The notes below the pieces were generated by a model. That model worked only from the letters and a program-made list of their open reading frames with translations, searched no databases and was not told the DNA's origin. Positions 14,682-44,977 of a stretch of 64,000 bases of DNA are shown here, one piece after another. Made by a program: the position numbers and the translations under genes. The DNA is from a virus, in IMG/VR virus record IMGVR_UViG_3300046782_000129, positions 53,535 through 117,534 of that record. The stretch is one strand, 5' to 3'. Each line of letters opens with the position of its first letter. Position 1 is the stretch's first letter.

Positions 14682-14851
14682 AAAATAATTGATCGCCGGA
14701 TTAAAATAATGGGTCGGCCCCACGGATCGCTGGGGGGGAAGAGAGCGATTCAACGAGCACCTTGCACCAACAAAACTAATCGTGGGTCAGGCCGGTTACG
14801 GTATACTTGTGCTTTGCTGATACCGTTCCGCGTGAAGGAGTCCGCCTGCCG

Positions 14852-17800
14852 ATGGACGATTATCAGAATCTTGCTGTTGGGGTTGTAGAGGTTCCCCCGT
14901 CTCCCGCCCAAACGGGGAAGACTGTTCGTCTGAAGACCGGTCACGGTCAGCGATTCCCCGATCCTCCGTTCAACGTCACGGCGTGGCCGAAGATCGGCAT
15001 GCCCAATCCGGACAACGCTGAGATTGCTCGATGCACAGCCGTCGAAGGCGATGACCTGACGCTGGAGATACGTGGCTATCAGGACACGGTGCCACGAGCC
15101 ATCCAATCCGGTGACTGGATCGCGGCGACGATCACGGATGAAACGATCATCGAACTGCACCGGCCAGTCTTTGCTAAGTATCTGGTCCAGCAACCGTACA
15201 TAGACCTGCCCAACGCGCAAGCTATCGGAGACCTAGAGACCGGCTACCTGAAGGGTGAGACCAGCACGGGTATCGTCAGTTCCGTGCAACTGATTGCCAC
15301 GACGGACTTGGAACTGCCCCACGATGATTCGGTCTACCTGAACGGCGAAGGTGAGTTTGTCGAACCCCCACCGGGGCCAGATGGTCCTCCGGGGCCTGAA
15401 GGTCCGCAGGGAGAACAAGGAGCACAAGGCGTCCAAGGCCCTCAGGGTATTCCGGGACCCACAGGTCCACAAGGCCCAGTCGGTTCAGAAGGCCCCACCG
15501 GGGAGACCGGGGCGGATGGACCTGAAGGTCCGCAGGGGGTGCCCGGAGTGACGGGTCCTCAAGGGTCCACCGGGCCAGCCGGTCCTCAGGGTTCGCAGGG
15601 GGTGCCGGGGGCGGTTGGAGCCACGGGACCTCCCGGAGCTACCGGAGCGACGGGATCGACCGGCCCAGCCGGTCCTATTGGCCCACAGGGTCCTGTGGGG
15701 GCCACGGGGCCGAAGGGGGCGACCGGAGACCAAGGTATCACCGGTCCACAGGGGGAAATGGGGGTTCCCGGTCCAGAAGGCCCACAGGGGACCACAGGAG
15801 CCACCGGGCAGACCGGACCACCGGGACCTCTTGGCCCAGCCGGTCCTACGGGATCGACCGGCCCAGCGGGTGTCCAAGGGGCGACAGGAGCTACGGGGGT
15901 GGCGGGGCCAGTCGGTCCTCAAGGTCCGCAAGGACCCATCGGCACGACCGGGCCAGCCGGTCCACTCGGTCCCAAGGGAGACAAGGGTGATACGGGAATT
16001 CAAGGCGTGCCGGGTCCGCAAGGATCACCGGGTGATACCGGTTCCACGGGTCCCGTAGGACCAGCCGGTGCCCAAGGAGCCAAGGGGGATCAGGGCGTGC
16101 CCGGTGTGCCGGGGCCAGAGGGTCCGGAAGGTCCAGCGGGAGCCGGGTTAGAAATCAAAGGCACGGTGCCAACAGTTGGGGACTTGCCACCAACCGGGGT
16201 GCCCGGAGATGCATGGCTGGCCGCAGATACTGGCCATTTGTGGGTCTGGGACGCAGAGACGAGCACGTGGATCGATGCGGGTCAGTTGCAAGGGCCAGCC
16301 GGTCCTCAAGGCCCACAAGGTGTGGTCGGTCCTCAAGGCATACCGGGTGCGACAGGTCCTCAAGGGACGACCGGTGCCCAAGGCGTTGCTGGTCCTCAAG
16401 GTTCGAAGGGCGATGTTGGCGCGACGGGTCCACAAGGGACGCAAGGTATCAAAGGGGATCCCGGAGTTGCTGGACCCTCAGGTCCTCAAGGACTCGATGG
16501 TCCGACAGGTCCGCAAGGCGCACAGGGAGCGAAGGGAGATACTGGTGCGACAGGACCGCAAGGGACGAAGGGTGATCCGGGTACGCAGGGCATCCAAGGG
16601 ACACAAGGCCCAGCGGGAGCTACCGGAGCCGATGGTCCAGCCGGTCCAGCAGGGTCTCAAGGTACGCAGGGGGTGCAGGGTCCGAAGGGAGACACGGGAG
16701 CCACTGGCACTACTGGGCCACAAGGTGATCCCGGACCCATTGGCAGCACTGGTCCGAAAGGTGATCCGGGTTCACAAGGTCCGATTGGAACCACAGGTCC
16801 TCCGGGGCCGCAAGGAATTCAGGGTCCGCTAGGTCCAGCCGGTCCAGATGGTCCGACCGGTCCCAAAGGAGATACGGGAGCGGCTGGACCACAAGGTTCC
16901 CAAGGCATTCAAGGAGCGACGGGAGCTACCGGTTCAACTGGAGCGACAGGTCCCGCAGGACCCACGGGGCCACAGGGGAATGATGGTCCACAAGGTGTGC
17001 AAGGGTTACAAGGATCCAAGGGGGACACCGGAGCCACCGGATCCCAAGGTCCAGCCGGAACTGATGGCGCACCGGGGGCCAAAGGAGACAAAGGGGATCC
17101 GGGTCCAGTTGGTCCAGAAGGTCCAGAGGGGCCACAAGGCCCACCGGGCACGGGTACAGGTGGTGGAGGCACGGACCTAGAGTACTTAGGCGATTACGTC
17201 TCGACCACGTATGACGATGGTGACATCGTGGTGGCGTCGGACGGAATCGCGTACATGTGTGTCAAGGATGGCGTCACGACGCCGCCTGAACCATGGCCGG
17301 GAACAGGCATCATTTCAGCGGTCGGTCCTCCGGGACCCACAGGACCGGTGGGACCACAGGGATTGCCGGGGCCAACAGGCTCAGCGGGAGCTACAGGAAG
17401 CCAAGGACCCGCAGGATCCAAAGGGGATCCGGGGCCACAAGGTGATCCGGGACCCAAGGGAGACACAGGACCGACAGGACCACAGGGATCACAAGGTACG
17501 CAAGGCACACAGGGTCCGCAAGGATCACAAGGGAGTCAAGGGACGGCAGGTACGCCCGGAGAAAAATGGTACTCAGATACGGGTGCGCCAGCCGGGGCCA
17601 CAGGAATTGTTGGAGACTGGTACCTCGATACGGCGACAGGAGATTTTTACGAGAAGACCGCCACGTCAGCGTGGACGAATCGCGGCAACCTCAAGGGGCC
17701 GCAGGGTGCGGCAGGTTCACCGGGAGCGCAGGGCAATCCCGGCATTACACGTCCATTCAGACTCGGCCACACGTGGGGACTGGTGGGTGATGTCTCTGGC

Positions 17801-18079
17801 CTGACCACGTTGCCGTCGATTTTCATTCCGTTCAACGGGACGCAAGCCGCCACGTTGGTGGGTTTGCGTATGAAGATCGCCACGGGAACGAGCGTGGGCG
17901 TGCAGTTGAAACGCAATGGAGCCAATGTGGGAAGTGTGGTCACGGTGACCACGACCGTAGCGACGACCACGCTGAGTCAGGTACTGGCCGCAGACGATGA
18001 ACTCACCATTGTGTTGTCGTCTCCGGTCGGCACCCCAACGCATTTGACGGCGACGTTGTATATCGAGCACACACCCTGA
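14852..18079 (+). CDS. Collagen-like (Gly-X-Y) fibre protein
   Basis: Several hundred residues of GXY triplets interrupted by small globular modules; AAGGAG RBS. Confidence 0.85.
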
Positions 18080-18816
18080 TGGCAACAACCTCAGCGGTGC
18101 TCACGACGGTCGGGTCTCAGACGTGGAATTGGCCTGCGGGCGTGACGTCCGTGATTGCTGAAGCGATTGGTGGTGGAGGGGGCAGTGGATCTGCCAATGC
18201 GAATCCCTCGACGGGTGGAGGCGGCAAAGGTGGCGGCTATGCCAAAGCGACCATCACCAAAGGGGCAGAAGCGTTATTGACCGTGGTGGTGGGAGGACCG
18301 GGACCGGCTGGAGCGGTTGGACCGCCATCCACCGTGACGCAAGGGGCTACTGTCGTCCTGTGTGCGGTCGGGGGTGGATTCGGAGCGACAGCGACGGTCG
18401 CTAGTACCAATGGGGCTGGAGCGACGACGGATAATGGTGGACCAGCGGTTGGATCAGTGACGTTTTCTGGAGGCAATGGCGGCACGGGGAATTACACGTC
18501 CGGTGTTGCTGGTTCAGGGGGCGGAGGCGGGGCAGCAGGACCTACGAGTGCAGGGGGAGCCGCGAATGTGAATGTGGCAGGCACGGGAGGTACTGGGACG
18601 TTCTCTGACGGGAATAAGTATTCTGGAGCGGGTGCGGCTGGGGTTGGGAATAGCACGCAAGGAGCGGCTGCGCCGTCTGGAGTGTCCAACAGTGGAGGAG
18701 CCGCATCAGGAGGTAAAAGTAATTCAGGAGCCGCCAAAGGTGGGTGGTCAGGACGGCAGGGTGTTGTGGTTTTGACGTGGACGGTGTATCAGCAACCGAT
18801 GGGAACGATCACATGA
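18079..18816 (+). CDS. Glycine-rich fibre-associated protein
   Basis: [20 protein letters not shown]...[10 protein letters not shown] typical of phage Gly-rich domains. Confidence 0.75.
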
Positions 18817-20585
18817 GCGGACCAGATCCAGCCACTACTGAATGGGTTCCGATTTGGAACTCGCAGACGTCTGGACCTGCGGGACCTCCGGGTCCACCCG
18901 GTCCTGATGGACCACAGGGTGATCCCGGTCCTACGGGACCTGTGGGTCCCCTTGGTCCGAAGGGAGATGCTGGTCCCACGGGAGCGACGGGAACTCAAGG
19001 CGCGTCAGGACCACAAGGCGTACAAGGCTCACAGGGTGTGCCGGGTCCTACGGGATTGCCGGGACCCACGGGTCCGACCGGACCAACCGGACCGCAAGGT
19101 ACGACTGGACCCCAAGGACCTATTGGAACCACGCCAGCCCTGACCGAAACGTTTTTGACGTCGGGGGCTGAGCCAGCCCTGCCCAATTCTCGGAAATTGA
19201 TTGCAGGCGCGAACATCGTCCTCGATGCGACGACCCCCGGTCAGTTAGTGATCAACGGTGGCGGGGCGGGAGGCATGGATCTGGAGTACTTAGGCGGGTA
19301 TGTCACGCCTAAGACGTATTTCGATGGCGATATCGTCATCGGAGACGATGGGGTCGCCTACATGTGCGTGGTGGACGGCACGACCACGCCACCAGAACCA
19401 TGGCCGGGAGTCGGCATTGCCACGTCCGTAGGTCCTCCGGGACCACCGGGGCCAACCGGACCACAAGGTACCGTAGGCCCAGCCGGTCCGACCGGCCCAG
19501 CAGGACCCACGGGATCGACCGGCACTCAAGGTCCACAGGGTGTGGTAGGACCCACGGGTCCGAAGGGTGACACGGGACCGCAAGGCGTCCAAGGTATTCA
19601 AGGCCCACAAGGTGTGCAAGGCCCTGCGGGGGTGAGTGCGGCGGTCGATGCGACGTACTGGGTAGCGTCGGCCCACCCCACGTTGACCAACGAGCGAAAT
19701 CTCGGGTCATTGGCGAATGGCTACGTCAAGAGTACCGGTGGGGAACCCAGCACGGTGGCCGTCATTCCCATTGCGGATGGCGGCACGGGAGCCACGAGCG
19801 CATCCGTGGCCCGGACGAATCTCGGACTTGGATCGATGGCCATTCAGAATTCAAACAGTGTGGCCATCACGGGCGGCACAATAGCCGGATCGCATTCAGG
19901 CGATGGATCAGGACTGACGAATCTTCCAGCCGGTCAGTTGGTGGGTACGATACCCATCGGATCGATTCCCGCAGGCGTGGCCCCCTTCAGCGGCATGATC
20001 GTGTTGAGCTTGTCTCCCTGTCCAGCGGGATGGACCCGCATTGCATGGATGGATGGCTATTTCCCGCGTAGCAATTCAGTGGCAGGAGGGTCAGGCGGAT
20101 CAGGAAGCCATCAGCACGGAGTGGGGAGTTACGCAGCCCCAAGTCACGCGCACGATGCCGGGTCCCTCGTGACGGCCAGCCACAGCCACGGTGGCCGAGT
20201 TGATATCAACCTGAACACGAATAGTTCAGGGTCGCATGGCCATTCATTCAGCGTAAGTCTGACGGCCAGTGCTCACGTGGTGGCAGACACGAACAACGGC
20301 AGCAACAGCACGAACAACGTGCAGGGCGGATCGATTAGCGTGTCCAGTTGGGCGCACTCGCACCACATTGATACGAACGCTGACGTACCGATCAACTACA
20401 ACGGCAGCACGGCGGGGGTCGGAGACCACTACCACAACGTGACAGGTTCGGCTGGAATCAGTGGAGATGCCCCTGCGGTGTCTGGATCGACGGGCGTGGC
20501 CGGTGGACTCGCCATCACGGGTGCCTCAGATGTGGTGTCCCATTTGCCGTACTTCGTAGATTTCTTCTTCTGTCAAAAGAACTAA
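18813..20585 (+). CDS. Collagen-like tail fibre with His-x-His needle tip
   Basis: GXY repeats; collar-like [17 protein letters not shown]; seven HxH motifs; C-terminal [12 protein letters not shown]. Confidence 0.8.
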
Positions 20586-36477: not shown

Positions 36478-38859
36478 ATGCGACTCACGATCTGGTCCAA
36501 GACCATCCCCGCCAAAGTCCTGCGAAACCTGTCGCCCGTCCTTCGCACCGCAAACGTAAACGCCACGGTCGTCGCTGACCATTCGGTGCCTGAGGGCACG
36601 ACGGTCATTCTCGCACTCGGCACGGAATCCCTCAAGAAGCTGCAAGAGCACAAGGTCCTCGCCAAGAACCGCACCACCACGTCCTATCGCACGATGCCCC
36701 ACATGCTGGGCACCACGCCCGTGTTGGTGAGCTACAGTCCGGAGATAGGCGAGATAGACCACGGCTACTATATCGATCTGTTGACCGATGTCAGCTTGGC
36801 CATGCGCTACTGCCTGACGGGCAAGTGGCATCCCATCTACGGCAAGTATCGGTACGTCAAAGACTTTTCCGAGTTGTGCCACGCGATTGAGCAACAGCAC
36901 GCCGACACCGGCCAGCCCGTGGACGTGGCGAAGGACTTGGAAACACTGGGGCTGGATCCCTACGCTGAACCAGAGCTAGGCTTCCCCGGTGCCTACATCG
37001 TCTCCATGCAGGCGTCACACCAGAAGGGCACCGCTGATGTGGTCCGGTTCGCTGATCGGATGCACGAGAGCCAGCGATTATCTGACCCAGCCTTCAGAGA
37101 GCAAGTGGAGTTTCTGTTGCGCTGTCCCTATGTCCGGTTGAAGGGCGCGAACTTCAAATACGATCTGCACTGGCTGTGGAAGCGTGGCGGCTTTACGTGC
37201 AGCACGTTCACCTTCGATACCACCATCGTGGGCAGTTTGCTCGATGAGAATCGTAGCAATGCGCTGGATGTTCACGTCAAACTCTACGCCAACACGCTGG
37301 CCGGGTACTCCGACAAGTTTGATCGTGAAGTGGACAAGAGCCGCATGGACAAGGTACCCCCCGATGCCCTGCTCCCCTATGCTGGCGGCGATGTGGATGG
37401 GGGCCTGCAAGTGGCCGAGGCCATGAAGCAGGAACTCCTGCAAGACAAGCGGCTGACCAGTTTCTATGTGAACGTCCTCCACCCCGCCGCCAGAGCCTTT
37501 GAATGGGTCGAGCAGGGGGGTGTGGTGATTGACCCCGAAGCCTTCAAAGAACTGAAATCTGATTTGGAGACGGAGCACGCCAGACTCGTGAAGGAAGCCA
37601 GCAGGATCATGGGGGGCCGCATCGTCATCAAGCATGCGTATAACAGCTTGATCGGGATGGGGGCCATGAACCTCACCAAAGCGTCCATGCTGGTGGACTT
37701 CATGTTCACCACGATGGGTCTCAATCTCAAGCCTAAGATGTGGACCCCGAAGCCCGACAAGGATGGGATCAAGCGACCATCAACAGCCATGGAACATCTG
37801 GAGATGTTTGCGGCCCTCCCAGAGGCCAAAGCCTTCGTGGACATCATCCGGCAAGACTCCAGCGTCATGAAGACCTACAACACCTACGTGGTGGGCTTCT
37901 TGGAGCACCTGAGGTCGGACCATCGTTTCCACCCATCGTACTGGCTCTTTGTGGGCAACAAAGAAGAGGGAGAGGGTGGCGCGAAGACTGGACGATTGTC
38001 TTGCACTGGACCCGCTTTTCAAACCGTACCCAAGCACACGGCATGGGCACAGAGAATCAGACGATGCTATCCGGCTCCACCGGGCTACGTGGTGGTCGAG
38101 CGAGACTATGGACAGGGTGAACTCCGGGTGGTGGCGTGCATTGCGAACGAGACGAACATGCTCAACGTGTTCAAATCGGGCAAGGACATACACGCGGATA
38201 CGGCAGCACCGTTCGCAGGGTACACCTACGATGCGCTGATGGCGTTGGAGCAGACGGATACCCACAAATTCGAAGAGACTAGACAGCTTGGGAAGGCGGG
38301 CAACTTTGGGCTGGTGTTCGGCATGCGTGAGGATGGCTTCGTGGCCTACGCCAAATCCAATTACGGCGTGGAGCTAACGTGGGAGGATGCCCACACCTTT
38401 CGCAACACGTTCTTTAAGAAATATCCCCGCCTAGAGGTGTATCATAGGTCCGCGATTGAGTTTGCGAAGCAGTACAAACACGTGAGAACGCCACTCGGCA
38501 GAATCCGGCACCTCCCGTTGATCACGTCGCCCAATCGTGAGGTGGCCGCGAAGGCGGAGCGACAGGCCATCAACAGCCCGGTTCAAGGTACCCTCACGGA
38601 CATGACCCTCTGGACCATTGCATTGGAGCACAAGTGGGGACTCGCCAAGATCGCGCCTTGTTTTGGAGCCTGCCACGACTCCATTCTGAATTATGTCCCC
38701 GAGGATCAAGTGGACAGCATCGTGAATCAGCAACTCGATCAGATGGAATCCCTGCCGTTCCACGAGGTTGGCTGGTCCCCGCAAGTGAAGTTCGTGGCCG
38801 AGGCCAAGGTGGGAAAAAATTGGGGCGAGGTCAAGAAGTTTCACAGGAAAGCCTCATGA
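36478..38859 (+). CDS. polA: Family A DNA polymerase with 3'-5' exonuclease and degenerate UDG-like N-terminus
   Basis: Exo I DLET, Exo II GANFKYD, Exo III YAGGD; TGRLS; motif A DYGQGELR; motif B RQLGKAGNFGLVFG; AINSPVQG; motif C HDS. Confidence 0.92.
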   Translation: MRLTIWSKTIPAKVLRNLSPVLRTANVNATVVADHSVPEGTTVILALGTESLKKLQEHKVLAKNRTTTSYRTMPHMLGTTPVLVSYSPEIGEIDHGYYIDLLTDVSLAMRYCLTGKWHPIYGKYRYVKDFSELCHAIEQQHADTGQPVDVAKDLETLGLDPYAEPELGFPGAYIVSMQASHQKGTADVVRFADRMHESQRLSDPAFREQVEFLLRCPYVRLKGANFKYDLHWLWKRGGFTCSTFTFDTTIVGSLLDENRSNALDVHVKLYANTLAGYSDKFDREVDKSRMDKVPPDALLPYAGGDVDGGLQVAEAMKQELLQDKRLTSFYVNVLHPAARAFEWVEQGGVVIDPEAFKELKSDLETEHARLVKEASRIMGGRIVIKHAYNSLIGMGAMNLTKASMLVDFMFTTMGLNLKPKMWTPKPDKDGIKRPSTAMEHLEMFAALPEAKAFVDIIRQDSSVMKTYNTYVVGFLEHLRSDHRFHPSYWLFVGNKEEGEGGAKTGRLSCTGPAFQTVPKHTAWAQRIRRCYPAPPGYVVVERDYGQGELRVVACIANETNMLNVFKSGKDIHADTAAPFAGYTYDALMALEQTDTHKFEETRQLGKAGNFGLVFGMREDGFVAYAKSNYGVELTWEDAHTFRNTFFKKYPRLEVYHRSAIEFAKQYKHVRTPLGRIRHLPLITSPNREVAAKAERQAINSPVQGTLTDMTLWTIALEHKWGLAKIAPCFGACHDSILNYVPEDQVDSIVNQQLDQMESLPFHEVGWSPQVKFVAEAKVGKNWGEVKKFHRKAS

Positions 38860-39131
38860 CCCCCAGTGGTGAGAGCAATATCCAATTCGTCCCCGAGCAT
38901 CAGTGTCCTGCCTGCAAACGGACCATGGATGTGGTGATGATCTTAGAAGACGATGAACCGTATCTCCCCGAGGCAGGCGACATCACCATCTGTGGGTTCT
39001 GCCTGACCGTGAACGTCTTCAAAGAGGATGGCCAGCTACGGTTTGCCACCAGTGAAGAGTGCGAGAAGATTCCTCATTGGGTAAGAGTCAGGATGGCCGA
39101 GGAACAGAAGAGACGACAGCGGGTGTTCTGA
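38856..39131 (+). CDS. Small Zn-ribbon protein
   Basis: CPAC...PEAGDITICGFC; ATGA overlap. Confidence 0.6.
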   Translation: MTPSGESNIQFVPEHQCPACKRTMDVVMILEDDEPYLPEAGDITICGFCLTVNVFKEDGQLRFATSEECEKIPHWVRVRMAEEQKRRQRVF

Positions 39132-39139
39132 TCGCACAG

Positions 39140-39170
39140 TTGACAAATCGTGGCGGCGCGTGTTAGGATC
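39140..39170 (+). promoter_or_regulatory. Sigma70 promoter heading the Tas-like operon
   Basis: TTGACAAA 39140, extended -10 TGTTAGGAT. Confidence 0.65.
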
Positions 39171-39199
39171 CACCCAGTCAATGGAGTGTTGTAGATCCC

Positions 39200-39373
39200 A
39201 TGTGGAGAATTCGCTCACTCACCGAGACGGATAACAAAGGCCAACCCAAGTACTGGTCCACCGATGTGGGCTGGACGTGGAAGACCTTTGCTGACACGTT
39301 CACACAGGAAGAAAAAGATGCCGTGATGCTGCCGAAGCACGCGGTCTGGGAAGCAATCACAGAGCAGGAGTAA
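39200..39373 (+). CDS. 57-aa Trp-rich protein, not in ORF track
   Basis: MWRIRSLTETDNKGQPKYWSTDVGWTW...; stop 3 nt before the Nop-domain gene. Confidence 0.55.
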   Translation: MWRIRSLTETDNKGQPKYWSTDVGWTWKTFADTFTQEEKDAVMLPKHAVWEAITEQE

Positions 39374-39376
39374 CCA

Positions 39377-40249
39377 ATGGCAGAAGAGAATTTCGATGAT
39401 CAGCAGTTAGACCCCATCAAGCGGCTCAACAGGGACCTGAAGAAGGCGGCGGCGACCCTCTCGGCTAATGAAGCGAGATTCCTCGTGGATGCATATTATC
39501 AGATGCAAAGAGACCGCATCCGAGCCGCGCATCAGGCGAGAACGTTGGAGGAGGCAGGAGAGCCGAATCAGATTCTCGGTTGGTTGTTCGACAACACCGA
39601 AACCCTCGAAAGAAACATCAAATCTGCCTTAGGCACTTACAGCAAGCATCACCCAGTCGGCAAGTGGGCGGAGTCCATCGTGGGCATCGGCCCCGTCATC
39701 AGCGCAGGTCTCTTGGCCCACATCGATATCCAGAAGGCCCCTACCGTGGGCCATATCTGGAGGTTTGCTGGTCTCGATCCTACCGTCGTGTGGGGCGAGG
39801 GCAAGAAGAGACCTTGGAACGGTGCTCTCAAAAGACTCTGCTGGATCATCGGAGAGAGTTTCACGAAGCAACAGAGCCACGAAGAGGACACCTACGGCCA
39901 GTTTTACGTGGCCCGCAAGGCCCAAGAAGAGACCAAGAACGCCAACCATGACTTCGCAGACCAAGCGAAGAAGTCTCTCTCCACCAAGAACTGGAAGAAG
40001 GACACTCAGACCAAAGCGGCCTATGAACAGGGGATGTTGCCGCAGGCCCGCATCCATCTAAGAGCACAGCGATACGCCGTGAAGCTCTTCCTTAGCCACT
40101 GGCACGAGGCCGCATTCTTCAACCACTATGGTGTCCTCCCTCCAAAACCCTACGTGATCCAACACATGGGCCACGCACACTTCATTCAGCCCCCAAACAT
40201 GCACTTGATTGCCGGATGGGCGGAGGCCAGAGCCAAGGCAGGCATCTAA
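39377..40249 (+). CDS. Nop-domain RNA-binding protein, TasA-like (IS110-related, no RuvC/HNH nuclease)
   Basis: Coiled N-terminus (LVDAYYQMQRDRIR), IVGIGPVISAGLLA, IWRFAGLDP, PWNGALKRLCWIIGESF, HLRAQRYAVKLFLSH; no DEDD domain, no SG catalytic loop; upstream of 36-nt dual-repeat array. Confidence 0.85.
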   Translation: MAEENFDDQQLDPIKRLNRDLKKAAATLSANEARFLVDAYYQMQRDRIRAAHQARTLEEAGEPNQILGWLFDNTETLERNIKSALGTYSKHHPVGKWAESIVGIGPVISAGLLAHIDIQKAPTVGHIWRFAGLDPTVVWGEGKKRPWNGALKRLCWIIGESFTKQQSHEEDTYGQFYVARKAQEETKNANHDFADQAKKSLSTKNWKKDTQTKAAYEQGMLPQARIHLRAQRYAVKLFLSHWHEAAFFNHYGVLPPKPYVIQHMGHAHFIQPPNMHLIAGWAEARAKAGI

Positions 40250-40554
40250 TGGCTCAGCAGTGGGATGAGTTTGAAGGCCGGTTCATCGAGATAGAGGAAA
40301 ACATCAAGCCTTCATTAGCGGTAAGGCGTGGGGCATCGGTGCCCCCGCCCCAAGCAAGCACAAGCAAGCACAAGCAAGCATTCCCCAAGCAAGCACAAGC
40401 AAGCACAAGCAAGCATCCCTCACCGGGCACTCCAGAGGGCAGAATGAAGGGTGGCAAGGCCAGATTGAGGGATGATCCGAAACGCCGTAGAGAGATTGCC
40501 CTCAGAGCCGCAAAAGTGCGTTGGAACAGAGGTCATGACACCAAGGGGTCGTAA
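40249..40554 (+). CDS. Small basic protein with internal tandem repeat and KGG-type C-terminus
   Basis: TAATG coupling; GRMKGGKARLRDDPKRRREIALRAAKVRW. Confidence 0.55.
   Translation: MAQQWDEFEGRFIEIEENIKPSLAVRRGASVPPPQASTSKHKQAFPKQAQASTSKHPSPGTPEGRMKGGKARLRDDPKRRREIALRAAKVRWNRGHDTKGS
40351..40415 (+). repeat. Tandem repeat (CAAGCAAGCA)3-TTCCC-(CAAGCAAGCA)3
   Basis: Read directly: 40351-40380 and 40386-40415. Confidence 0.9.
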
Positions 40555-40846
40555 ATTGTTGGCGGCGGCTCTGGAAGCCAAGAAGATGGTCATAGGCAGG
40601 GGCCACGTTCTGGGTAAGTGGAAGTCACAGGTGGGTGGGGATATGCACCCATCGAAGGCGCAGATTCTTCACGTGCAGTGTGTGCAGTGCCAAGCGTGGC
40701 TCAATCTTGAACTAATGGTGGACGAGACCATCCACGTGGGTGGAGCAGCCTACAGACGGCCCTGCCAAGGTATCATCAGAAGCAGGAAGCGGAAAGCCGC
40801 CAAGCAACAACCGGTGAATGAAGAGCGTGCCGTGCAAGGAGAGTGA
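40535..40846 (+). CDS. Basic Cys/His protein; 3' end overlaps first array unit
   Basis: GAGG RBS; GHVLGKW..CVQC..GGAAYRRPC, similar to 950..1264. Confidence 0.55.
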   Translation: MTPRGRKLLAAALEAKKMVIGRGHVLGKWKSQVGGDMHPSKAQILHVQCVQCQAWLNLELMVDETIHVGGAAYRRPCQGIIRSRKRKAAKQQPVNEERAVQGE

Positions 40847-42926
40847 GCCGCTAAGGTGGGAGAGTGCCGTGTGCTCAGAGCGATCCGGGTAGCACGAGCG
40901 CACCGATGTTGGAGAGTGAGTCATCATCAATGAGGCGCACCGTATCTGCTGAACGAGTCGTGACATGTGAGGGTGCCAAGGTAACGAAACGAGTCTGCAC
41001 AAGTGAGCGTACCGAGTACAGTGAACGAGTCTGAGGCGAGGAAGGGTGCCGTGAACCGTGAACGAGTCTAGGTCAGAGAGCGCACCGAGATGTTTGAACG
41101 AATCGTTCCAACGGAGCGTGCCGTCCATTGCGAATGAACCGAAGCCTCCTGCCCGGAGGCCGCAGAGCGTACCTGAAGGGCGTTGAGTGAGCCGCTGAAC
41201 TACGAGCGCACCGTAGCAGTTGATCGAGTCGTGCTTCATGAGCGTACCGAAAAGCTTGGAACGAGTCATGTTGAGCGAGAGGACCGTTAGCCATGATCGA
41301 GTCGAGTTGAACGAGCGCACCATACTTGGTGAACGAGTCGTGTGGCCCCGAGGGCACCGTGATTGTTGAACGAGTCGAGAGACGCGAGAGCACCAGAATA
41401 ACTGAACGAGTCTCTTTCGGAGAGCGTGCCGCAGTATCGGAACGAACCACATGCGACGACCGCACCGAATCACACGAGTGAGTCGTTGAGTGCGAGTGGA
41501 CCGTTGTTAACGAACGAGTCGTCTAGTAAGAGCGCACCAAAATACAGGATCGAGTCGAGCAGTAAGAGCGTACCGTGGCTTAGGAACGAGTCGTAAGGAG
41601 AGACATCACGAAGCATCTGAACGAGTCGGGGCAATTGAAAGTTACGTACGGATCGAACGAGTCGTGAATGGTTAGCGTACCGAAGCATCTGAACGAGTCC
41701 TGACAGCAGTGGGTGCCGTAATGACAGAACGAGTCGTATAGGGTGAGAGTACCATCAGACGAAGAACGAGTCGTGAACGAACGAGCGCACCGTGGGAGTT
41801 GAACGAGTTGTGTCAAGCGAGGGTGCCGATCTTCTTGAACGAGTCGTGTTGACCGAGCGTGCCGTGGTTTGAGAACGAGTCTCCTATGTAGAGCGTACCG
41901 AGCCTGTTGAACGAGTCGGAATTGCGGAGAGTGCCGAGTTGTTTGAACGAGCCGCACCGATTGAGGGCACCTTAGACGTGGATCGAGTCGGGCAAAGAGA
42001 GCGTGCCGTGATAGAGGAACGAACCAAGCGTACTTGAGCGCACCGTGATCTAGGAGTGAGTCGAGCCACTTGAGTTACCCGCGAGGTTCGAACGAACCGC
42101 AAATATTGAGAAGGCCGGGACATGGGAGTGAGCCGAGACAGCCGACCAGTCACGAGATGAAGTAGCGAGTCGCTGACATACGAGGGTGCCGCGCAAGGTG
42201 AACGAGTTGGAAGCTTCAGAGGGCACCGAGACGGACGAACGAGTCGAGCCACGTGAGTGTACCCTGAGGTTCGAACGAGTCGAGACTACTGCGAGTACCG
42301 AGCTAACGGAACGAGCCATGCGAGACGAGCCGGGGATCATGATCCCACGTTGGCCATGAGCGAGTCGTGCAAGTGAGGGCATCGTCCTAGAAGAACGAGT
42401 CGTGACAGTCGAGCGCACCACCCGCAAAGAACGAGTCGAGATTTTTGAGCGTACCAAACTCATGGAACGAGTCGAAGGGTACTGAGCGTACCGATGGTAG
42501 AGAACGAGTCGAACTCACAGAGGGTACCGAGCACCACAGAACGAGTCGCATTGACTTGAGGGCACCGTTGACCGGGAACGAATCGATGAAGAAGAGCCTC
42601 CCGTAAGTGTTGAATGAGTCGAAGAGTCTGAGCACTCCGTAAGAAGCGAACGAGTCCGTGAGCAGAAGAGCGCACCGATCAAGATGAACGAGTCGTTATG
42701 GAAGAGTCCCCCGAGCTATGTGAACGAGTCGTGCCACTCGATAGTGACGAAGACACAGAACGATCCGTTGCGTTGGTGAGTGCCGGTACGTGTGAGTGAA
42801 CCGGAGTGTATGAGAGCACCGTGCTGTACGAGTGAGTCGTGTCTTAGGAGAGTGCCGACACAGTGGAACGAGTCGTAATCCGCGAGAGCACCGGGGTAAT
42901 CGAGCAGCCGCGACCACAGTGGCACC
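40823..42926 (+). ncRNA. TIGR-like dual-repeat guide-RNA array (~56-57 units, 36-nt period)
   Basis: Alternating 9-nt repeats GAACGAGTC and GAG(C/G/A)G(C/T)(A/G)CC separated by unique ~9-nt spacers, e.g. repeat starts at 40951, 40987, 41023. Confidence 0.9.
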
Positions 42927-42955
42927 GAAACTAGAGAGCGTGAAATTCATCAAGG

Positions 42956-42982
42956 AGGGCCAGCCAACGTGCTGGCCCTTTT
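42956..42982 (+). terminator. Intrinsic terminator closing the array
   Basis: AGGGCCAGC-CAACGT-GCTGGCCCT perfect 9-bp stem then TTT. Confidence 0.75.
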
Positions 42983-43081
42983 CATTGATACTGACCCTCA
43001 GCTTCCCATTGCAATCAGTTGCCAGAGGTCGTAAACTACTGACCATCCGAAATCCAAGTGTCCTCTTTGTCAAGAGGTTGT

Positions 43082-44977
43082 ATGTTGAAGCTCATAGGCG
43101 ACGGCACCACCAAGACGGAGCGGCCCGAACACAAGATCACATTCATCCAACAGGTGATCAAGGGTGAGACGTGGCTGGTCATGGCCCACTCAGCGGTGGA
43201 GCTAGAGGACGAATTTACCAGTCTGTACTATACGGCGGGCCAGCAGAACAACCTGTTCCTGATGCCGCCCTTCGAACCAAATGTGCTCTTGAATCTGGTG
43301 CAGACGAATAACGTCCTGAACCAGTGCATCGAGGCCATGGAAGTGAACATCGATGGCACGGGCCACGAATTCGTCCCCTCAGAAGAGGGGGAAGACATTG
43401 ACAAGGAAGAAGAGAAGATCGCCAAGTCGTTCTTCGATGAACCTTACCCGAACATCAGTATGGTGACGATCCGCCGCAGGCTCCGTCGCCAGATGGAGTC
43501 GGTGGGCTACGGCTTCTTGGAAGTGCTCAGAAACCTGAAGGGCGACATCGTAGGCTTGAGAACGGTGGAGACCGCCCACGTCCGCATGGTCAAGCTCGAT
43601 GCGCCCATCCAAGTCCAGAAAACCATCGAGCGTGATGGCAAGGACGTGGAGTTGACGTTGTGGGTCAGAGAACGACGCTTTGCCCAGACGGTAGCTCTCA
43701 AGCAGCAGATTTACTACCGAGAGTACGGCACGACACGAGAAATCAATCGAGATACGGGCGACTGGGAGACGGATGACAAGAAAGTGCCACCAGAGAAGCG
43801 GGGCACGGAGTTGTTCTGTCTGGGCATCAACCCTGATGTCACCACGCCCTACTGGCTCCCCCGGTGGATCAATGAACTGCCTTCGGTGGTTGGGTCACGA
43901 GCCGCCGAAGAGCAGAACCTGCAATTCTTGGACGCCGGGGGATTGCCGCCTGCCATCGTGTTCATCCAAGGCGGCACCCTGATCAAGGATACGTCTGACC
44001 AGTTGCGGATGTACCTCAGCGGCATGAACAAGAACAAGAATCGTGCGGTGGTGGTTGAGGTGCAGTCATCTTCGGGATCGTTGGATGCGGCAGGTAAAGT
44101 GGACGTGAAGGTCGAGCGTTTTGGATCGGCCCAATCACAAGACTCGATGTTCACCAACTACGATGAGGTGACTGAAGAGCACGTGCGCGTGGGCTTCAGA
44201 CTGCCACCCCTGTTCCTTGGTAAAGCGGCTGATTATAACTTCGCCACGGCACAAACGGCCTACATGGTGGCCGAGGCGCAAGTTTTCCTGCCAGAGCGTG
44301 CCGAATTCGATGAGTTGATCAACAAGACGATCATCAAAGAACTGAAGCTGAAGACGCTGAAGTTCAAGTCCAAGCCCATTACGTTGAAGGACGTGGCCAC
44401 CCAGATTCAGGCGTTGACGCTGGCCGCGCCGATGGCCACCCGAGAGTCCTTCCTGAAGGACGTCAACACGGTGAGCAGTTTGAATTTGGAGTTGGCGGCG
44501 ATGCCTCATCCGAACGTGGCTCCCGGACAGACGGCTCCCGGAGATACGATTGCGGACATTCCGCACGAGCAGCTACCTGCGGGCATGGCTCCGCCAGTGA
44601 TCACGTCTCCGCAGCCTGAACCCAAGGAACCCGAGCCACCGAAGGAGAAGGAAGAGACGCACGTCATCCTGAAGCCGGGGGATCAGATGCATCCCATCCC
44701 CAAGAAGAACCAGACCATCAAGGTGCCGCCCAAGAAGGAGAAGAAGGCCGCGAGTGAACTGATGGCGTTGACCAGAGACTACGCGGTGATTACGGGACTG
44801 TTACCCAACCTCGTGCAGAAGCAGGAGATTTCTGTGGAACGTGCTGCTGAGGTGGCCGAGGCCGTGAAGAGCTTGACACCTGATGATGCGAAGTCCTTCA
44901 ACAGTCTGTTAGCGATGTACGTCTTCGGATCAGATGATGCAGACTTGGCGACCATCGTGGCGGCGAGTCGTGGCTAA
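43082..44977 (+). CDS. Portal protein (PBSX-like) with Pro-rich C-terminal extension
   Basis: NVLNQCIEAM, GYGFLEVLRN, PYWLPRWI, NLQFLDAGGLPPAIVFIQGG, FRLPPLFLG, NFATA; head-module context. Confidence 0.88.
   Translation: MLKLIGDGTTKTERPEHKITFIQQVIKGETWLVMAHSAVELEDEFTSLYYTAGQQNNLFLMPPFEPNVLLNLVQTNNVLNQCIEAMEVNIDGTGHEFVPSEEGEDIDKEEEKIAKSFFDEPYPNISMVTIRRRLRRQMESVGYGFLEVLRNLKGDIVGLRTVETAHVRMVKLDAPIQVQKTIERDGKDVELTLWVRERRFAQTVALKQQIYYREYGTTREINRDTGDWETDDKKVPPEKRGTELFCLGINPDVTTPYWLPRWINELPSVVGSRAAEEQNLQFLDAGGLPPAIVFIQGGTLIKDTSDQLRMYLSGMNKNKNRAVVVEVQSSSGSLDAAGKVDVKVERFGSAQSQDSMFTNYDEVTEEHVRVGFRLPPLFLGKAADYNFATAQTAYMVAEAQVFLPERAEFDELINKTIIKELKLKTLKFKSKPITLKDVATQIQALTLAAPMATRESFLKDVNTVSSLNLELAAMPHPNVAPGQTAPGDTIADIPHEQLPAGMAPPVITSPQPEPKEPEPPKEKEETHVILKPGDQMHPIPKKNQTIKVPPKKEKKAASELMALTRDYAVITGLLPNLVQKQEISVERAAEVAEAVKSLTPDDAKSFNSLLAMYVFGSDDADLATIVAASRG

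Follow-up and report, generated by a model that had tools for sequence, protein, structure and literature searches.

The locus, which lies between the genes for DNA polymerase and portal protein (the latter starting at 43058, downstream of the array terminator), is very probably a dual-repeat TIGR-TasA system of a tailed soil phage of ~117 kb, this being the best explanation overall. Positions refer to the window, i.e. the whole stretch of 64,000 nucleotides analyzed (53,535 to 117,534 of IMG/VR record IMGVR_UViG_3300046782_000129); the phage genome of 117,534 nt is nearly complete. TIGR-Tas systems were described in 2025 as compact RNA-guided DNA binders or cutters that need no adjacent motif (PMC12045711). 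The TIGR-Tas reading is supported by sequence, predicted fold, array anatomy, and comparative genomics, and the original prediction of a TIGR-Tas-like layout, consisting of a nuclease-less Nop protein and a dual-repeat array of ~57 units, was borne out on these counts. Faure et al. 2025 (PMC12045711) list the identical 290-aa protein, with the same contig coordinates, in their Table S1, and the locus is therefore already known; it is an ordinary example and no new kind of system. The accompanying hope that the set of repeats, the size of the array, and the layout of accessory genes might be new found no support. The repeat GAACGAGTC recurs in L017, L038, L067, L093, and L105, the repeat family being common to related loci; at least 8 related loci have arrays of ~45-60 units; and the two intervening open reading frames have no relatives in the 80 related loci.

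The tasA gene (39377..40249, + strand) encodes 290 aa, for which sequence and predicted structure indicate a coiled-coil hairpin and a Nop domain and no nuclease domain. Transposase_20, a C-terminal family, was the sole Pfam family matched (E 1.8e-4), and the PHROG match was phrog_4285 (E 5.4e-47), which is named transposase. Comparison with PDB sequences by phmmer retrieved TasR (9mty, E 5.9e-15) and TasH (21kl, E 2.3e-7). When the AF2 model (pLDDT 87.3) was submitted to Foldseek, the best 10 matches were all TasH or TasR (E about 3e-7). With VIA-align, residues 28-277 of the model aligned with residues 66-309 of TasH (Z 18.5, 220 residues) and 112-322 of TasR (Z 18.1, 193 residues); ISCro4 was the runner-up (Z 12.8), and the remaining matches listed (Z <=9.4) covered the coiled-coil hairpin alone. 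Structure prediction, which had been proposed as a check, therefore revealed a Nop fold with TasH and TasR as its closest matches. In the model, residues 1-7 are disordered, helices start from residue 13, and no domain precedes the coiled coil, whose long helical hairpin (30-59 and 65-90) aligned with the coiled coils of TasH and TasR, the domain that would make the dimer. The alignments begin past the HNH domain of TasH and the RuvC domain of TasR, respectively, and no HNH or RuvC family was found in TasA with Pfam at E up to 1; the claim that this 290-aa protein has neither a DEDD RuvC nor an HNH domain thus holds. The predicted GIGP and RFAGLDP motifs are both present and conserved (residues 103-106 and 129-135). 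Tyr259 and His266 of TasA align with Tyr289 and His296 of SpTasH, the numbering having been checked by hand on the printed SpTasH sequence; PMC13421893 describes the latter two as the pre-tigRNA processing pair. In dual-repeat systems, this pair is conserved and lies on a C-terminal loop. Among 30 relatives, His266 is invariant and Tyr259 is conserved in at least 90%. As judged from the alignment, the Tyr/His pair needed in TasH for autonomous pre-tigRNA cleavage is kept in TasA.

The dual-repeat TIGR array (40823..42892, + strand) was parsed by dynamic programming into 114 repeats of 9 nt, in which an A type (GAACGAGTC) alternates with a B type (GAGCGCACC), yielding ~57 tigRNA units of 36 nt, close to an earlier hand count of ~56-57. 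Self-matching of 40800-42960 peaked at lags 18 (0.370), 36 (0.428), and 72 (0.368) over a level of ~0.22-0.29 at other lags; the first two peaks had been expected, and the example quoted at 40951 in the original prediction reads as written. Of 113 repeat-to-repeat intervals, 89 measure exactly 18 nt and the others 16 nt (1), 17 nt (5), 19 nt (14), 20 nt (3), and 32 nt (1). Throughout the 117,534-nt genome, exact GAACGAGTC occurs 28 times and exact GAGCGCACC 9 times, and every copy lies within the array. The two alternating kinds of repeat are 9-10 nt long and the spacers 8-9 nt. We designate GAACGAGTC(G) as the edge repeat, on the basis of the CGAG core common to the TaTIGR, ParTIGR, and SpTIGR repeats in Table S1 of PMC12045711, and GAGCGCACC(G) as the loop repeat, following the statement in the same paper that the A-rich repeat is the loop repeat. 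Edge and loop repeats of TIGR arrays have their end motifs in common (box D at the start, box C at the end), and these covary between the two; here, GA opens both repeats, and C followed by a purine closes them. Among the regular 18+18 units taken for the logos (29 of 44 A-then-B repeat pairs), the base after the repeat is G in 23 of 29 cases for A and 21 of 29 for B, in line with the claim that most spacers start with G. Since each repeat is followed by a conserved purine, the variable part comes to 8+8 nt, as in SpTIGR. No spacer of the parse is identical to another, in line with the claim that nearly all spacers are unique. The 9-mer GAAGCATCT stands directly before two different edge repeats (41610 and 41682), and one or two more degenerate repeats may be discerned beyond 42892, to ~42944.

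Two stretches of the array are irregular. The first (41132..41204, + strand) contains degenerate repeats, with repeat scores of 2-3 of 9 at 41149, and a short GCCTCC/GGAGGC hairpin; it folded no better than its shuffles (z -1.01, 33/200). The second (42309..42358, + strand) was evident from the parse as a 32-nt repeat-to-repeat interval holding GGGATCATGATCCC, and it likewise folded no better than shuffles (z +0.37, 123/200). Tandem Repeats Finder reported 2.4 copies only (42391-42475) because the array copies are too dissimilar. A search of 38800-43200 for Rfam families at E up to 1 gave none. A CRISPR array was considered and rejected, as two 9-10-nt repeats alternate here, whereas CRISPR arrays have a single repeat of 25-36 nt with spacers of similar size.

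A relative was encoded in 276 of 289 candidate viral stretches, and 80 related loci were kept as the comparative set. A 36-nt dual-repeat array with the same two repeat types was parsed beside tasA in 73 of the 80. Across 956 distinct units of these related arrays, a purine comes first after both repeats in 96-98%, and the base after A equals the base after B in 78% (47% expected), which fits a symmetric dimer reading both repeats.

A sigma-70-type promoter of the tasA-array operon is predicted at 39140..39169 (+ strand), where one had been proposed: TTGACA-18-TAGGAT with an upstream TG, i.e. 10 of 12 matches and an extended -10. It carries the extended -35 word TTGACAAA, of which the + strand has 24 copies genome-wide where base composition would predict ~1.07, and is one of 8 + strand TTGACAAA sites accompanied by TGnTAnnnT at promoter spacing. 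By its sequence, the tasA promoter is thus a member of the phage's own promoter family. Among the matches listed, the next TTGACA does not occur before 43398. The array transcript would be closed by an intrinsic terminator (42953..42986, + strand), for which a 12-pair stem (42953-42982) is followed by the T-run TTTTCATT. The stem folds with -22.9 kcal/mol (z -3.24), and 1 of 200 shuffles folded as well. This hairpin, which corresponds to the terminator predicted at 42956, was missing from the list of the terminator scan and was found by folding.

It is improbable that the array is a decaying relic from which useful guides are no longer made and which is carried along with an intact gene. The degenerate repeats at both ends and at about four internal places, the two irregular stretches, the targets not found (see below), and a lag-36 self-match below that of many relatives (best value 0.58 here, up to 0.71 in relatives) point in that direction; the array is indeed rather degenerate, and therefore some units may yield no working guides. 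However, the tasA gene is intact and retains the conserved core and the Tyr/His pair, promoter and terminator are both intact, and 28 exact copies of the edge repeat are kept. Moreover, the arrays of the syntenic relatives L004 and L006/L008 are similar in length and have different spacers, which suggests turnover under use rather than decay.

For a functional TIGR-TasA system, the mechanism may be outlined from relatives. TasA itself would cleave a transcript of ~3.8 kb midway through each edge repeat (GAACGAGTCG) to give 36-nt tigRNAs, one of which would be held by a TasA dimer. Spacer A would pair with one strand of the DNA and spacer B, at an adjacent half-site, with the opposite strand, so that the sequence along one strand would be spacer A and then spacer B in reverse complement. 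The complex would bind and bend the DNA without cutting it, and transcription or replication would be blocked. Processing of tigRNA and tandem-spacer targeting are reported in PMC12045711, and TasA is presented as an RNA-guided transcriptional repressor in a preprint (10.64898/2026.09.09.750476). The idea of binding without cutting, put forward in the original prediction, agrees with that preprint, and we infer it for the present locus. More tentatively, the 57-guide array could constitute a multiplexed silencing program, expressed during infection from a promoter for the host RNA polymerase and directed at many sites on the host chromosome or on co-resident prophages or plasmids, and not at the phage.

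The targets were sought by sequence. Their geometry was taken from two statements in PMC12045711 (8-nt 3' overhangs and the C-5 rule), while a third sentence there ("cut 3' to the nucleotide") agrees with the other geometry; both were searched because the three statements disagree. With the array masked, none of the adjacent spacer pairs matched the 117,534-nt genome perfectly. For 18-nt sites with <=3 mismatches, the two real geometries gave 13 and 12 matches in the phage's own genome and control joinings 7 and 11; for 16-nt cores with gaps of 0-2 and <=2 mismatches, the figures were 15 and 11 versus 18, 23, and 12. The best 16-nt-core matches had 1 mismatch; there were 2 of them in the real geometry, compared with 2 and 1 in controls. 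No targets exceeded the control geometries in related phage DNA (821 kb) or in the reciprocal search. The search for spacer pairs as bipartite targets, which had been suggested as a check, hence gave no targets above controls in this phage and in related phage DNA. Since no target was found in any DNA searched, the target class, most likely the host or competing mobile elements and not the phage itself, is a guess. Guides aimed at the phage's own genes, as a self-directed RNA-guided repressor timing the viral program, are considered possible in the discussion sections of PMC12045711 and the preprint 10.64898/2026.09.09.750476, and the promoter family of the operon also drives many other phage genes. 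Nevertheless, self-regulation of this kind is very unlikely in view of the missing perfect spacer-pair match in the phage's own genome and of imperfect matches at control level.

Translation of the periodic region into a repeat protein, with a period of 12 codons, has a negligible probability: open frames on the - strand reach 228 codons in the array, and the list of open reading frames contains one of 253 aa at 40712-41473, but the number of stops per frame is 33-39 on the + strand and 9-16 on the - strand, 24 of 113 intervals differ from 18 nt and thus shift the frame, six - strand open reading frames have no Pfam family at E <=0.01 (sole match DUF2695, E 0.046, below its cut-off), the spacers are unconserved with no 20-mer common to this array and any of the 80 loci, and a low T content of the + strand (17.3%) is in keeping with long frames on the - strand. 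It is most unlikely that the protein is a remnant of an IS110-type transposase with unrelated repeats: Transposase_20 and phrog_4285 both name a transposase, and IS621 and ISCro4 come next after the Tas proteins in structural likeness, yet a DEDD/RuvC-like domain is missing from the 290 aa, the model aligned with residues 125-321 of ISCro4 only, TasR/TasH lead in sequence (E 5.9e-15 versus 0.29) and in structure (Z 18 versus 12.8), and gene and array occur together in 73 of the 80 related loci. IS110 recombinases (IS621, PDB 8wt6; ISCro4, PDB 9t56) have an RNA-binding Nop-like domain in common with TasA (Z 12.8 over 178 residues), whereas their DEDD domain, single bridge RNA, and transposon ends are missing here and a guide array is present instead.

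As a TIGR-TasA system, the locus most resembles those of FpTasA (Flavonifractor plautii, Faure et al. 2025, PMC12045711) and MbTasA (Xu et al. 2026, 10.64898/2026.09.09.750476), which likewise have a solo Nop-domain Tas protein, an adjacent two-repeat array of 36-nt units, a terminator after the array, and a phage location. Nothing categorical differs from the accounts available of these two systems; distinctive here are the long array (~57 units) and the gap of ~570 nt between gene and array. According to PMC12045711, TIGR arrays have "most often 5 to 15" units, and 65,635 tigRNAs in 4,126 arrays correspond to a mean near 16 per array. SpTIGR-TasH of Salicola phage CGphi29 (PDB 21kl, 9w03, 9w04; PMC13421893) has the same Nop and coiled-coil fold (Z 18.5), the Tyr/His processing pair, ten-letter repeats, a variable part of eight letters, and CGAG as the core of the edge repeat (AAGCGAGCCA in SpTIGR, GAACGAGTCG here). 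Identity in the structural alignment is 17-20%, and SpTasH has an N-terminal HNH domain, whereas TasA does not and is therefore not expected to cut. TaTIGR-TasR (PDB 9mty) is the best sequence match among solved structures (Z 18.1, rmsd 2.5, 193 residues, 27% identity). Its edge repeat, TGCGAGCCA, contains the same CGAG core; residues 1-111 of TasR (RuvC) have no counterpart in TasA, and the repeat ends are GA...(T/C)C-purine here and UG...CCA in TaTIGR. Archaeal and eukaryotic box C/D snoRNPs (Nop5, Nop56/58) agree with Tas systems, according to PMC12045711, in the Nop fold, in the coiled-coil dimer, and in an RNA layout with two guides, whereas a fibrillarin-recruiting domain and a K-turn/L7Ae partner appear to be absent here and the targets would be DNA. 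A Nop5 chain was absent among the Foldseek and VIA-align matches listed; likeness to Nop5 may still exist.

Immediately upstream of tasA lies a small open reading frame of 57 aa (39200..39373, + strand). By tblastn it was found in 5 of 80 related loci (L004, L006, L007, L008, and L050; 53-62% identity), upstream of tasA in all five, and its conservation is limited to syntenic phages. It has no family in Pfam or PHROG, and nothing ties its function to the TIGR-Tas system. The gap between tasA and the array holds two orphan open frames, both on the + strand, neither of which had a tblastn match in the 80 related loci or a family in Pfam or PHROG. ORF101 (40249..40554), the coding status of which is doubtful, overlaps the tasA stop in TAATG and contains a 35-nt tandem duplication (2.0 copies, 40348-40416); its best ESM Atlas score was 0.80 and the Atlas model had a pLDDT of 0.41. 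ORF103 (40535..40846) overlaps the first degenerate array units with its 3' end, and in a collection of 5.8 billion proteins its sole match was itself (1 protein of 4 candidates).

The value of the locus is that of a test case rather than a discovery: it is a long, well-formed example, its promoter and terminator are clear, and the phage genome is nearly complete. Small facts of use are guides that have no match in their own genome, the stability of the array, and a variant with fewer units. At least 4 further studies of soil and rhizosphere have metagenomes that contain the same phage with the same spacers; there were no RNA runs among the listed sequencing runs holding the locus. This recurrence, together with the variant, could help to find natural TIGR targets and to watch the loss of units; genomes assembled from samples that hold the phage might be searched for such targets. 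The array was unchanged in several soil samples. In one soil run, a variant lacked exactly two units between identical edge repeats, a loss expected from recombination between repeats.

Direct reading of positions 39000-43200 showed that, from about 40823, short conserved words alternate with variable stretches. The self-match profile of 40800-42960 had peaks at lags of 18 (0.370), 36 (0.428), and 72 (0.368) versus 0.22-0.29 elsewhere, so that both periods expected in the original prediction, 18 and 36, were present. A dynamic-programming parse resolved 40823-42892 into a dual-repeat array of 114 alternating repeats (~57 units), in which an A-type repeat with the consensus GAACGAGTC alternates with a B-type repeat with the consensus GAGCGCACC; the unit count previously made by hand, the example quoted with it, and its coordinates were right. 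The interval between successive repeats was exactly 18 nt in 89 of 113 cases, the others measuring 16 (one), 17 (five), 19 (14), 20 (three), and 32 nt (one). Exact copies of GAACGAGTC (n = 28) and GAGCGCACC (n = 9) in the 117,534-nt genome, a single contig, all lie inside the array. In the 29 fully regular units, every position of the A repeat was conserved and letters four, six, and seven of the B repeat were unconstrained; the base just after the repeat was G in 23 (A) and 21 (B) of them. Two stretches, 41132-41204 and 42309-42358, are irregular, and their small hairpins folded no better than shuffles. No Rfam family matched within 38800-43200. Two further regions with lag-18/36 signals (genome 68781-71277 and 72284-73323) are accounted for by a collagen-like ORF and are therefore not further guide arrays. 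This 1090-aa ORF (window 14807-18079, + strand) carries long Gly-X-Y runs, seen also at 18744-20585, and is probably a tail fibre.

The 290-aa product of the gene at 39377-40249 (+) matched Transposase_20 in Pfam (E = 1.8e-4) and PHROG 4285, annotated 'transposase' (E = 5.4e-47). Among the sequences of solved structures, the best matches were TasR (9mty, E = 5.9e-15) and TasH (21kl, E = 2.3e-7), the Tas proteins bearing RuvC and HNH nuclease domains, respectively; IS621 gave E = 0.29. An AlphaFold model was built with 30 relatives (mean pLDDT 87.3). The first ten Foldseek rows for this model were TasH and TasR chains (E = 3e-7 to 3e-6), and ISCro4 and IS621 came after, near E = 1e-2. Alignment with VIA-align, a search independent of Foldseek, gave Z 18.5 for TasH (220 residues, rmsd 3.6), Z 18.1 for TasR (193 residues, rmsd 2.5, 27% identity), and Z 12.8 for ISCro4; every other row had Z ≤9.4 and was confined to the helical hairpin 29-90 of the model. 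Of the structural comparisons proposed beforehand, Tas proteins matched best and the IS110 proteins ISCro4 and IS621 next; no Nop5 chain was among the Foldseek and VIA-align matches listed. Because the alignments begin at residue 66 of TasH and residue 112 of TasR, past the HNH and RuvC domains, we deduced that the protein is TasA, which bears out the proposed nuclease-less Nop protein. The array parse and the TasH/TasR fold together support the reading of the locus as a TIGR-Tas-like system. SpTasH is reported to self-cleave its precursor RNA via Y289 and H296 (PMC13421893), and this Tyr/His pair is a mark of dual-repeat systems according to Xu et al. (10.64898/2026.09.09.750476). In the sequence alignment, Y259 and H266 of the window TasA lie opposite Y289 and H296; among the 30 relatives, H266 never varies and Y259 is almost invariant. 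A Cys-rich insertion of ~35 residues past the GIGP helix (alignment columns 134-170) was seen in the TasA relatives P0013, P0020, P0046, and P0094, the subset including loci L013, L018, L022, and others; two of these relatives carry a second insertion, and the window TasA has neither.

Faure et al. 2025 (PMC12045711) list, in the ProteinInfo sheet of their Table S1 ('all TIGR systems'), one protein that matches all 290 residues exactly. It is placed at 92910-93783 (+) of its contig, the position of tasA (window 39377-40249 corresponds to genome 92911-93783), and the branch motif GHIWRFAGLDPT occurs at least 794 times in the same table. Thus, the branch is large, and the locus had already been catalogued; it is an ordinary representative of a family described only recently. 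A single-protein query of viral contigs found no relative; with an alignment as query, a relative was encoded in 276 of 289 candidate stretches. At E ≤0.001, 4,680 TasA relatives were found among 5,832 candidates. A 36-nt dual-repeat array adjoins the gene in 73 of the 80 related loci kept, as judged by the parser, and a 38-nt period was present in three of the other seven.

The original prediction had held that the repeat set, the array size, and the accessory-gene layout might be new; this was not supported. Two repeat types, GA-N-CGAG-N-C and GAG-N-G-N-ACC or similar, are common to these loci, five of which also contain GAACGAGTC. By a stricter per-locus measure, the window array has 53 parsed units; L017 and L031 have 47, L021 46, L045 46.5, L036 45, and L105, on a bacterial chromosome, 46.5. 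L006 and L008 have 50 (~58 by span) and L001 has 42 (~63 by span); L053 and L057, both of which hold several arrays, total 57 and 74. With several relatives at ~45-60 units by parse or span, the window array therefore stands at the top of the range and is not exceptional in its branch. L041, L047, L053, and L057 have between four and six separate arrays, scattered across >10 kb around tasA. Two ORFs of 101 and 103 codons (ORF101 and ORF103) lie in the ~570-nt unique sequence between tasA and the array. Neither had a relative in any of the 80 related loci or a Pfam or PHROG family; ORF103 retrieved itself alone from a 5.8-billion-protein collection, and ORF101 gave a poor model with no credible neighbour in the ESM Atlas. 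Judged by these comparisons, ORF101 and ORF103 are not conserved accessory genes.

The TIGR locus is preceded by a DNA polymerase gene (36478-38859, +) and followed by a portal protein gene (43058-44977, +). All long genes of the window are on the + strand, and the 64-kb window contains no tRNAs. The promoter-like site at 39140 (+) has 10 of 12 matches, with TG, and contains the extended -35 word TTGACAAA. A terminator hairpin at 42953-42982 (+; -22.9 kcal/mol, z -3.24), followed by a T-run, ends the array, so that the locus is bracketed by promoter and terminator as had been proposed. No TTGACA occurs after 39140 before 43398. The simplest reading is a single transcript of ~3.8 kb comprising a small ORF, tasA, the unique sequence, and the array. 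The genome has 24 copies of TTGACAAA on the + strand versus ~1 expected, and six on the - strand; in eight of the 24, including 39140, TGnTAnnnT follows at the spacing of a promoter. TTGACAAA marks a promoter family that occurs throughout the phage genome, with window examples at 1342, 1995, 28377, 28442, 31657, 33569, and 39140.

The order polymerase, tasA, array, portal is common to five related loci, L004 and L006/L007/L008/L050, which represent two distinct phage lineages, the latter four parsing identically. None of the five had a 20-mer in common with the window array, and spacers are wholly replaced between relatives whose TasA proteins are 68-71% identical. Isolated phages yielded one distant TasA-like match alone, in Microcystis phage Mvi-JY20 (25% identity). 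By portal protein, the closest isolated phages are Stenotrophomonas phages DLP_5 and Summit, and their identity of 48-49% is too distant to name the host.

In Table S1 of PMC12045711, TGCGAGCCA alternates with TGAAACCCA in the TaTIGR array and AAGCGAGCCA with AAGACAACCA in the SpTIGR array. The A-rich repeat is the loop according to that paper, and the CGAG-core repeat is therefore the edge, the site of processing. By likeness to the TaTIGR and SpTIGR repeats, GAACGAGTC(G) was assigned as the putative edge repeat and GAGCGCACC(G) as the putative loop, which fits the unconstrained middle of the B repeat. Across 956 distinct regular units of the related loci, a purine directly followed either repeat in 96-98%, and the base after A equaled that after B in 78% versus 47% expected. 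Thus, the first base behaves as part of the repeat, leaving 8+8 variable letters, like the 16 variable nt of SpTIGR (PMC12045711). In the systems described, transcripts of the array are cleaved midway through each edge repeat, which yields 36-nt guide RNAs (tigRNAs); one tigRNA is bound per Tas dimer, its spacers pair, on opposite strands, with two adjoining half-sites, and nuclease-free TasA binds and represses (PMC12045711; 10.64898/2026.09.09.750476). By homology, the window transcript would be cut within each edge repeat, with tigRNAs starting inside GAACGAGTCG, and a TasA dimer with one tigRNA would place the spacers on opposite strands, bind, and repress. Because PMC12045711 reports 8-nt 3' overhangs and a 'C-5' rule, we derive that one target strand would correspond to spacer A plus the reverse complement of spacer B. 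One sentence of the same paper fits the other joining, and both geometries were therefore searched.

Adjacent spacer pairs were compared with the phage's own genome, with the array masked, in both geometries and in control joinings. No perfect site was found there, and matches at 1-3 mismatches equaled those of the control joinings. Against 821,123 nt of the 80 related viral loci, window guides gave 2 and 0 matches at ≤2 mismatches versus 1 and 2 for controls. When 933 guides from related arrays were searched against the phage genome, with 16-nt cores, gaps of 0-2, a perfect match in one half, and ≤1 mismatch in the other, 12 and 5 matches were obtained versus 9, 9, 14, and 8 for controls, and the sole exact match was in a control. 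The bipartite search advocated in the original prediction thus ended at control level in the own phage and the related loci; self-regulation and mutual targeting among the examined relatives are therefore not supported, and the targets may lie in the host or in other mobile elements. By arithmetic, an 18-mer has ~17 chance occurrences expected in 596 billion bases of genome contigs; the same argument is made by Xu et al. (10.64898/2026.09.09.750476).

In the 956 units, the final base of one spacer did not covary with that of the other (identity 0.236 versus 0.251 expected; complementarity 0.246 versus 0.250). No spacer matched the array's own repeats or their reverse complement at ≤2 mismatches. 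Enrichment for promoter words was rejected: TTGAC/GTCAA occurred in 4 of 114 spacers versus 1.3 in shuffles, 98 of 2000 shuffles reached 4, and a six-letter word was present in one spacer alone. An excess of near-duplicate spacers was likewise discarded (29 pairs at ≤2 mismatches versus 21.7 ± 4.7, reached by 38 of 500 shuffles). G+C periodicity over joined half-sites, a test for coding targets, gave no lag-3 signal and a single lag-6 value of 0.052 among 28 tests. Reuse of guide halves was observed within 41584-41700 and 42054-42290. The 9-mer GAAGCATCT stands before the edge repeats at 41610 and at 41682, each time paired with a different spacer, and units 42054 and 42237 are near-duplicate in both halves (GAGCCACTT/GCGAGGTTC versus GAGCCACGT/CTGAGGTTC).

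One soil run contained 99% of the sampled locus words and may be the origin of the locus; six more runs from soil or rhizosphere, one per study, contained 21-44%. No RNA run with the locus was among the sequencing runs listed, and a 30-nt ORF103 word retrieved no near-identical copy from the viral or metagenome contigs searched. Contigs of four of these runs, from four studies, were ≥99% identical to 38000-44000 in 53 of 56 pieces, some array pieces showing zero differences. A perfect, CAAGCA-rich tandem duplication of 35 nt was noted at 40348-40416 within ORF101, an orphan frame. At 40350 and 40405, contigs from runs X2 and X4 stop or diverge from the window, and this spot may reflect population variation or the attraction of unrelated contigs. 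In one contig of run X4, 41258 was joined to 41331, so that 72 nt, exactly two units, were absent between two copies of the 9-nt edge repeat. In another, the letters past 41409 resembled 41446 onward, one unit apparently being absent. The other three runs had the window form wherever these places were covered. Because the X4 contigs have low depth (~3x), the unit loss is taken as a lead; it fits recombination between repeats.
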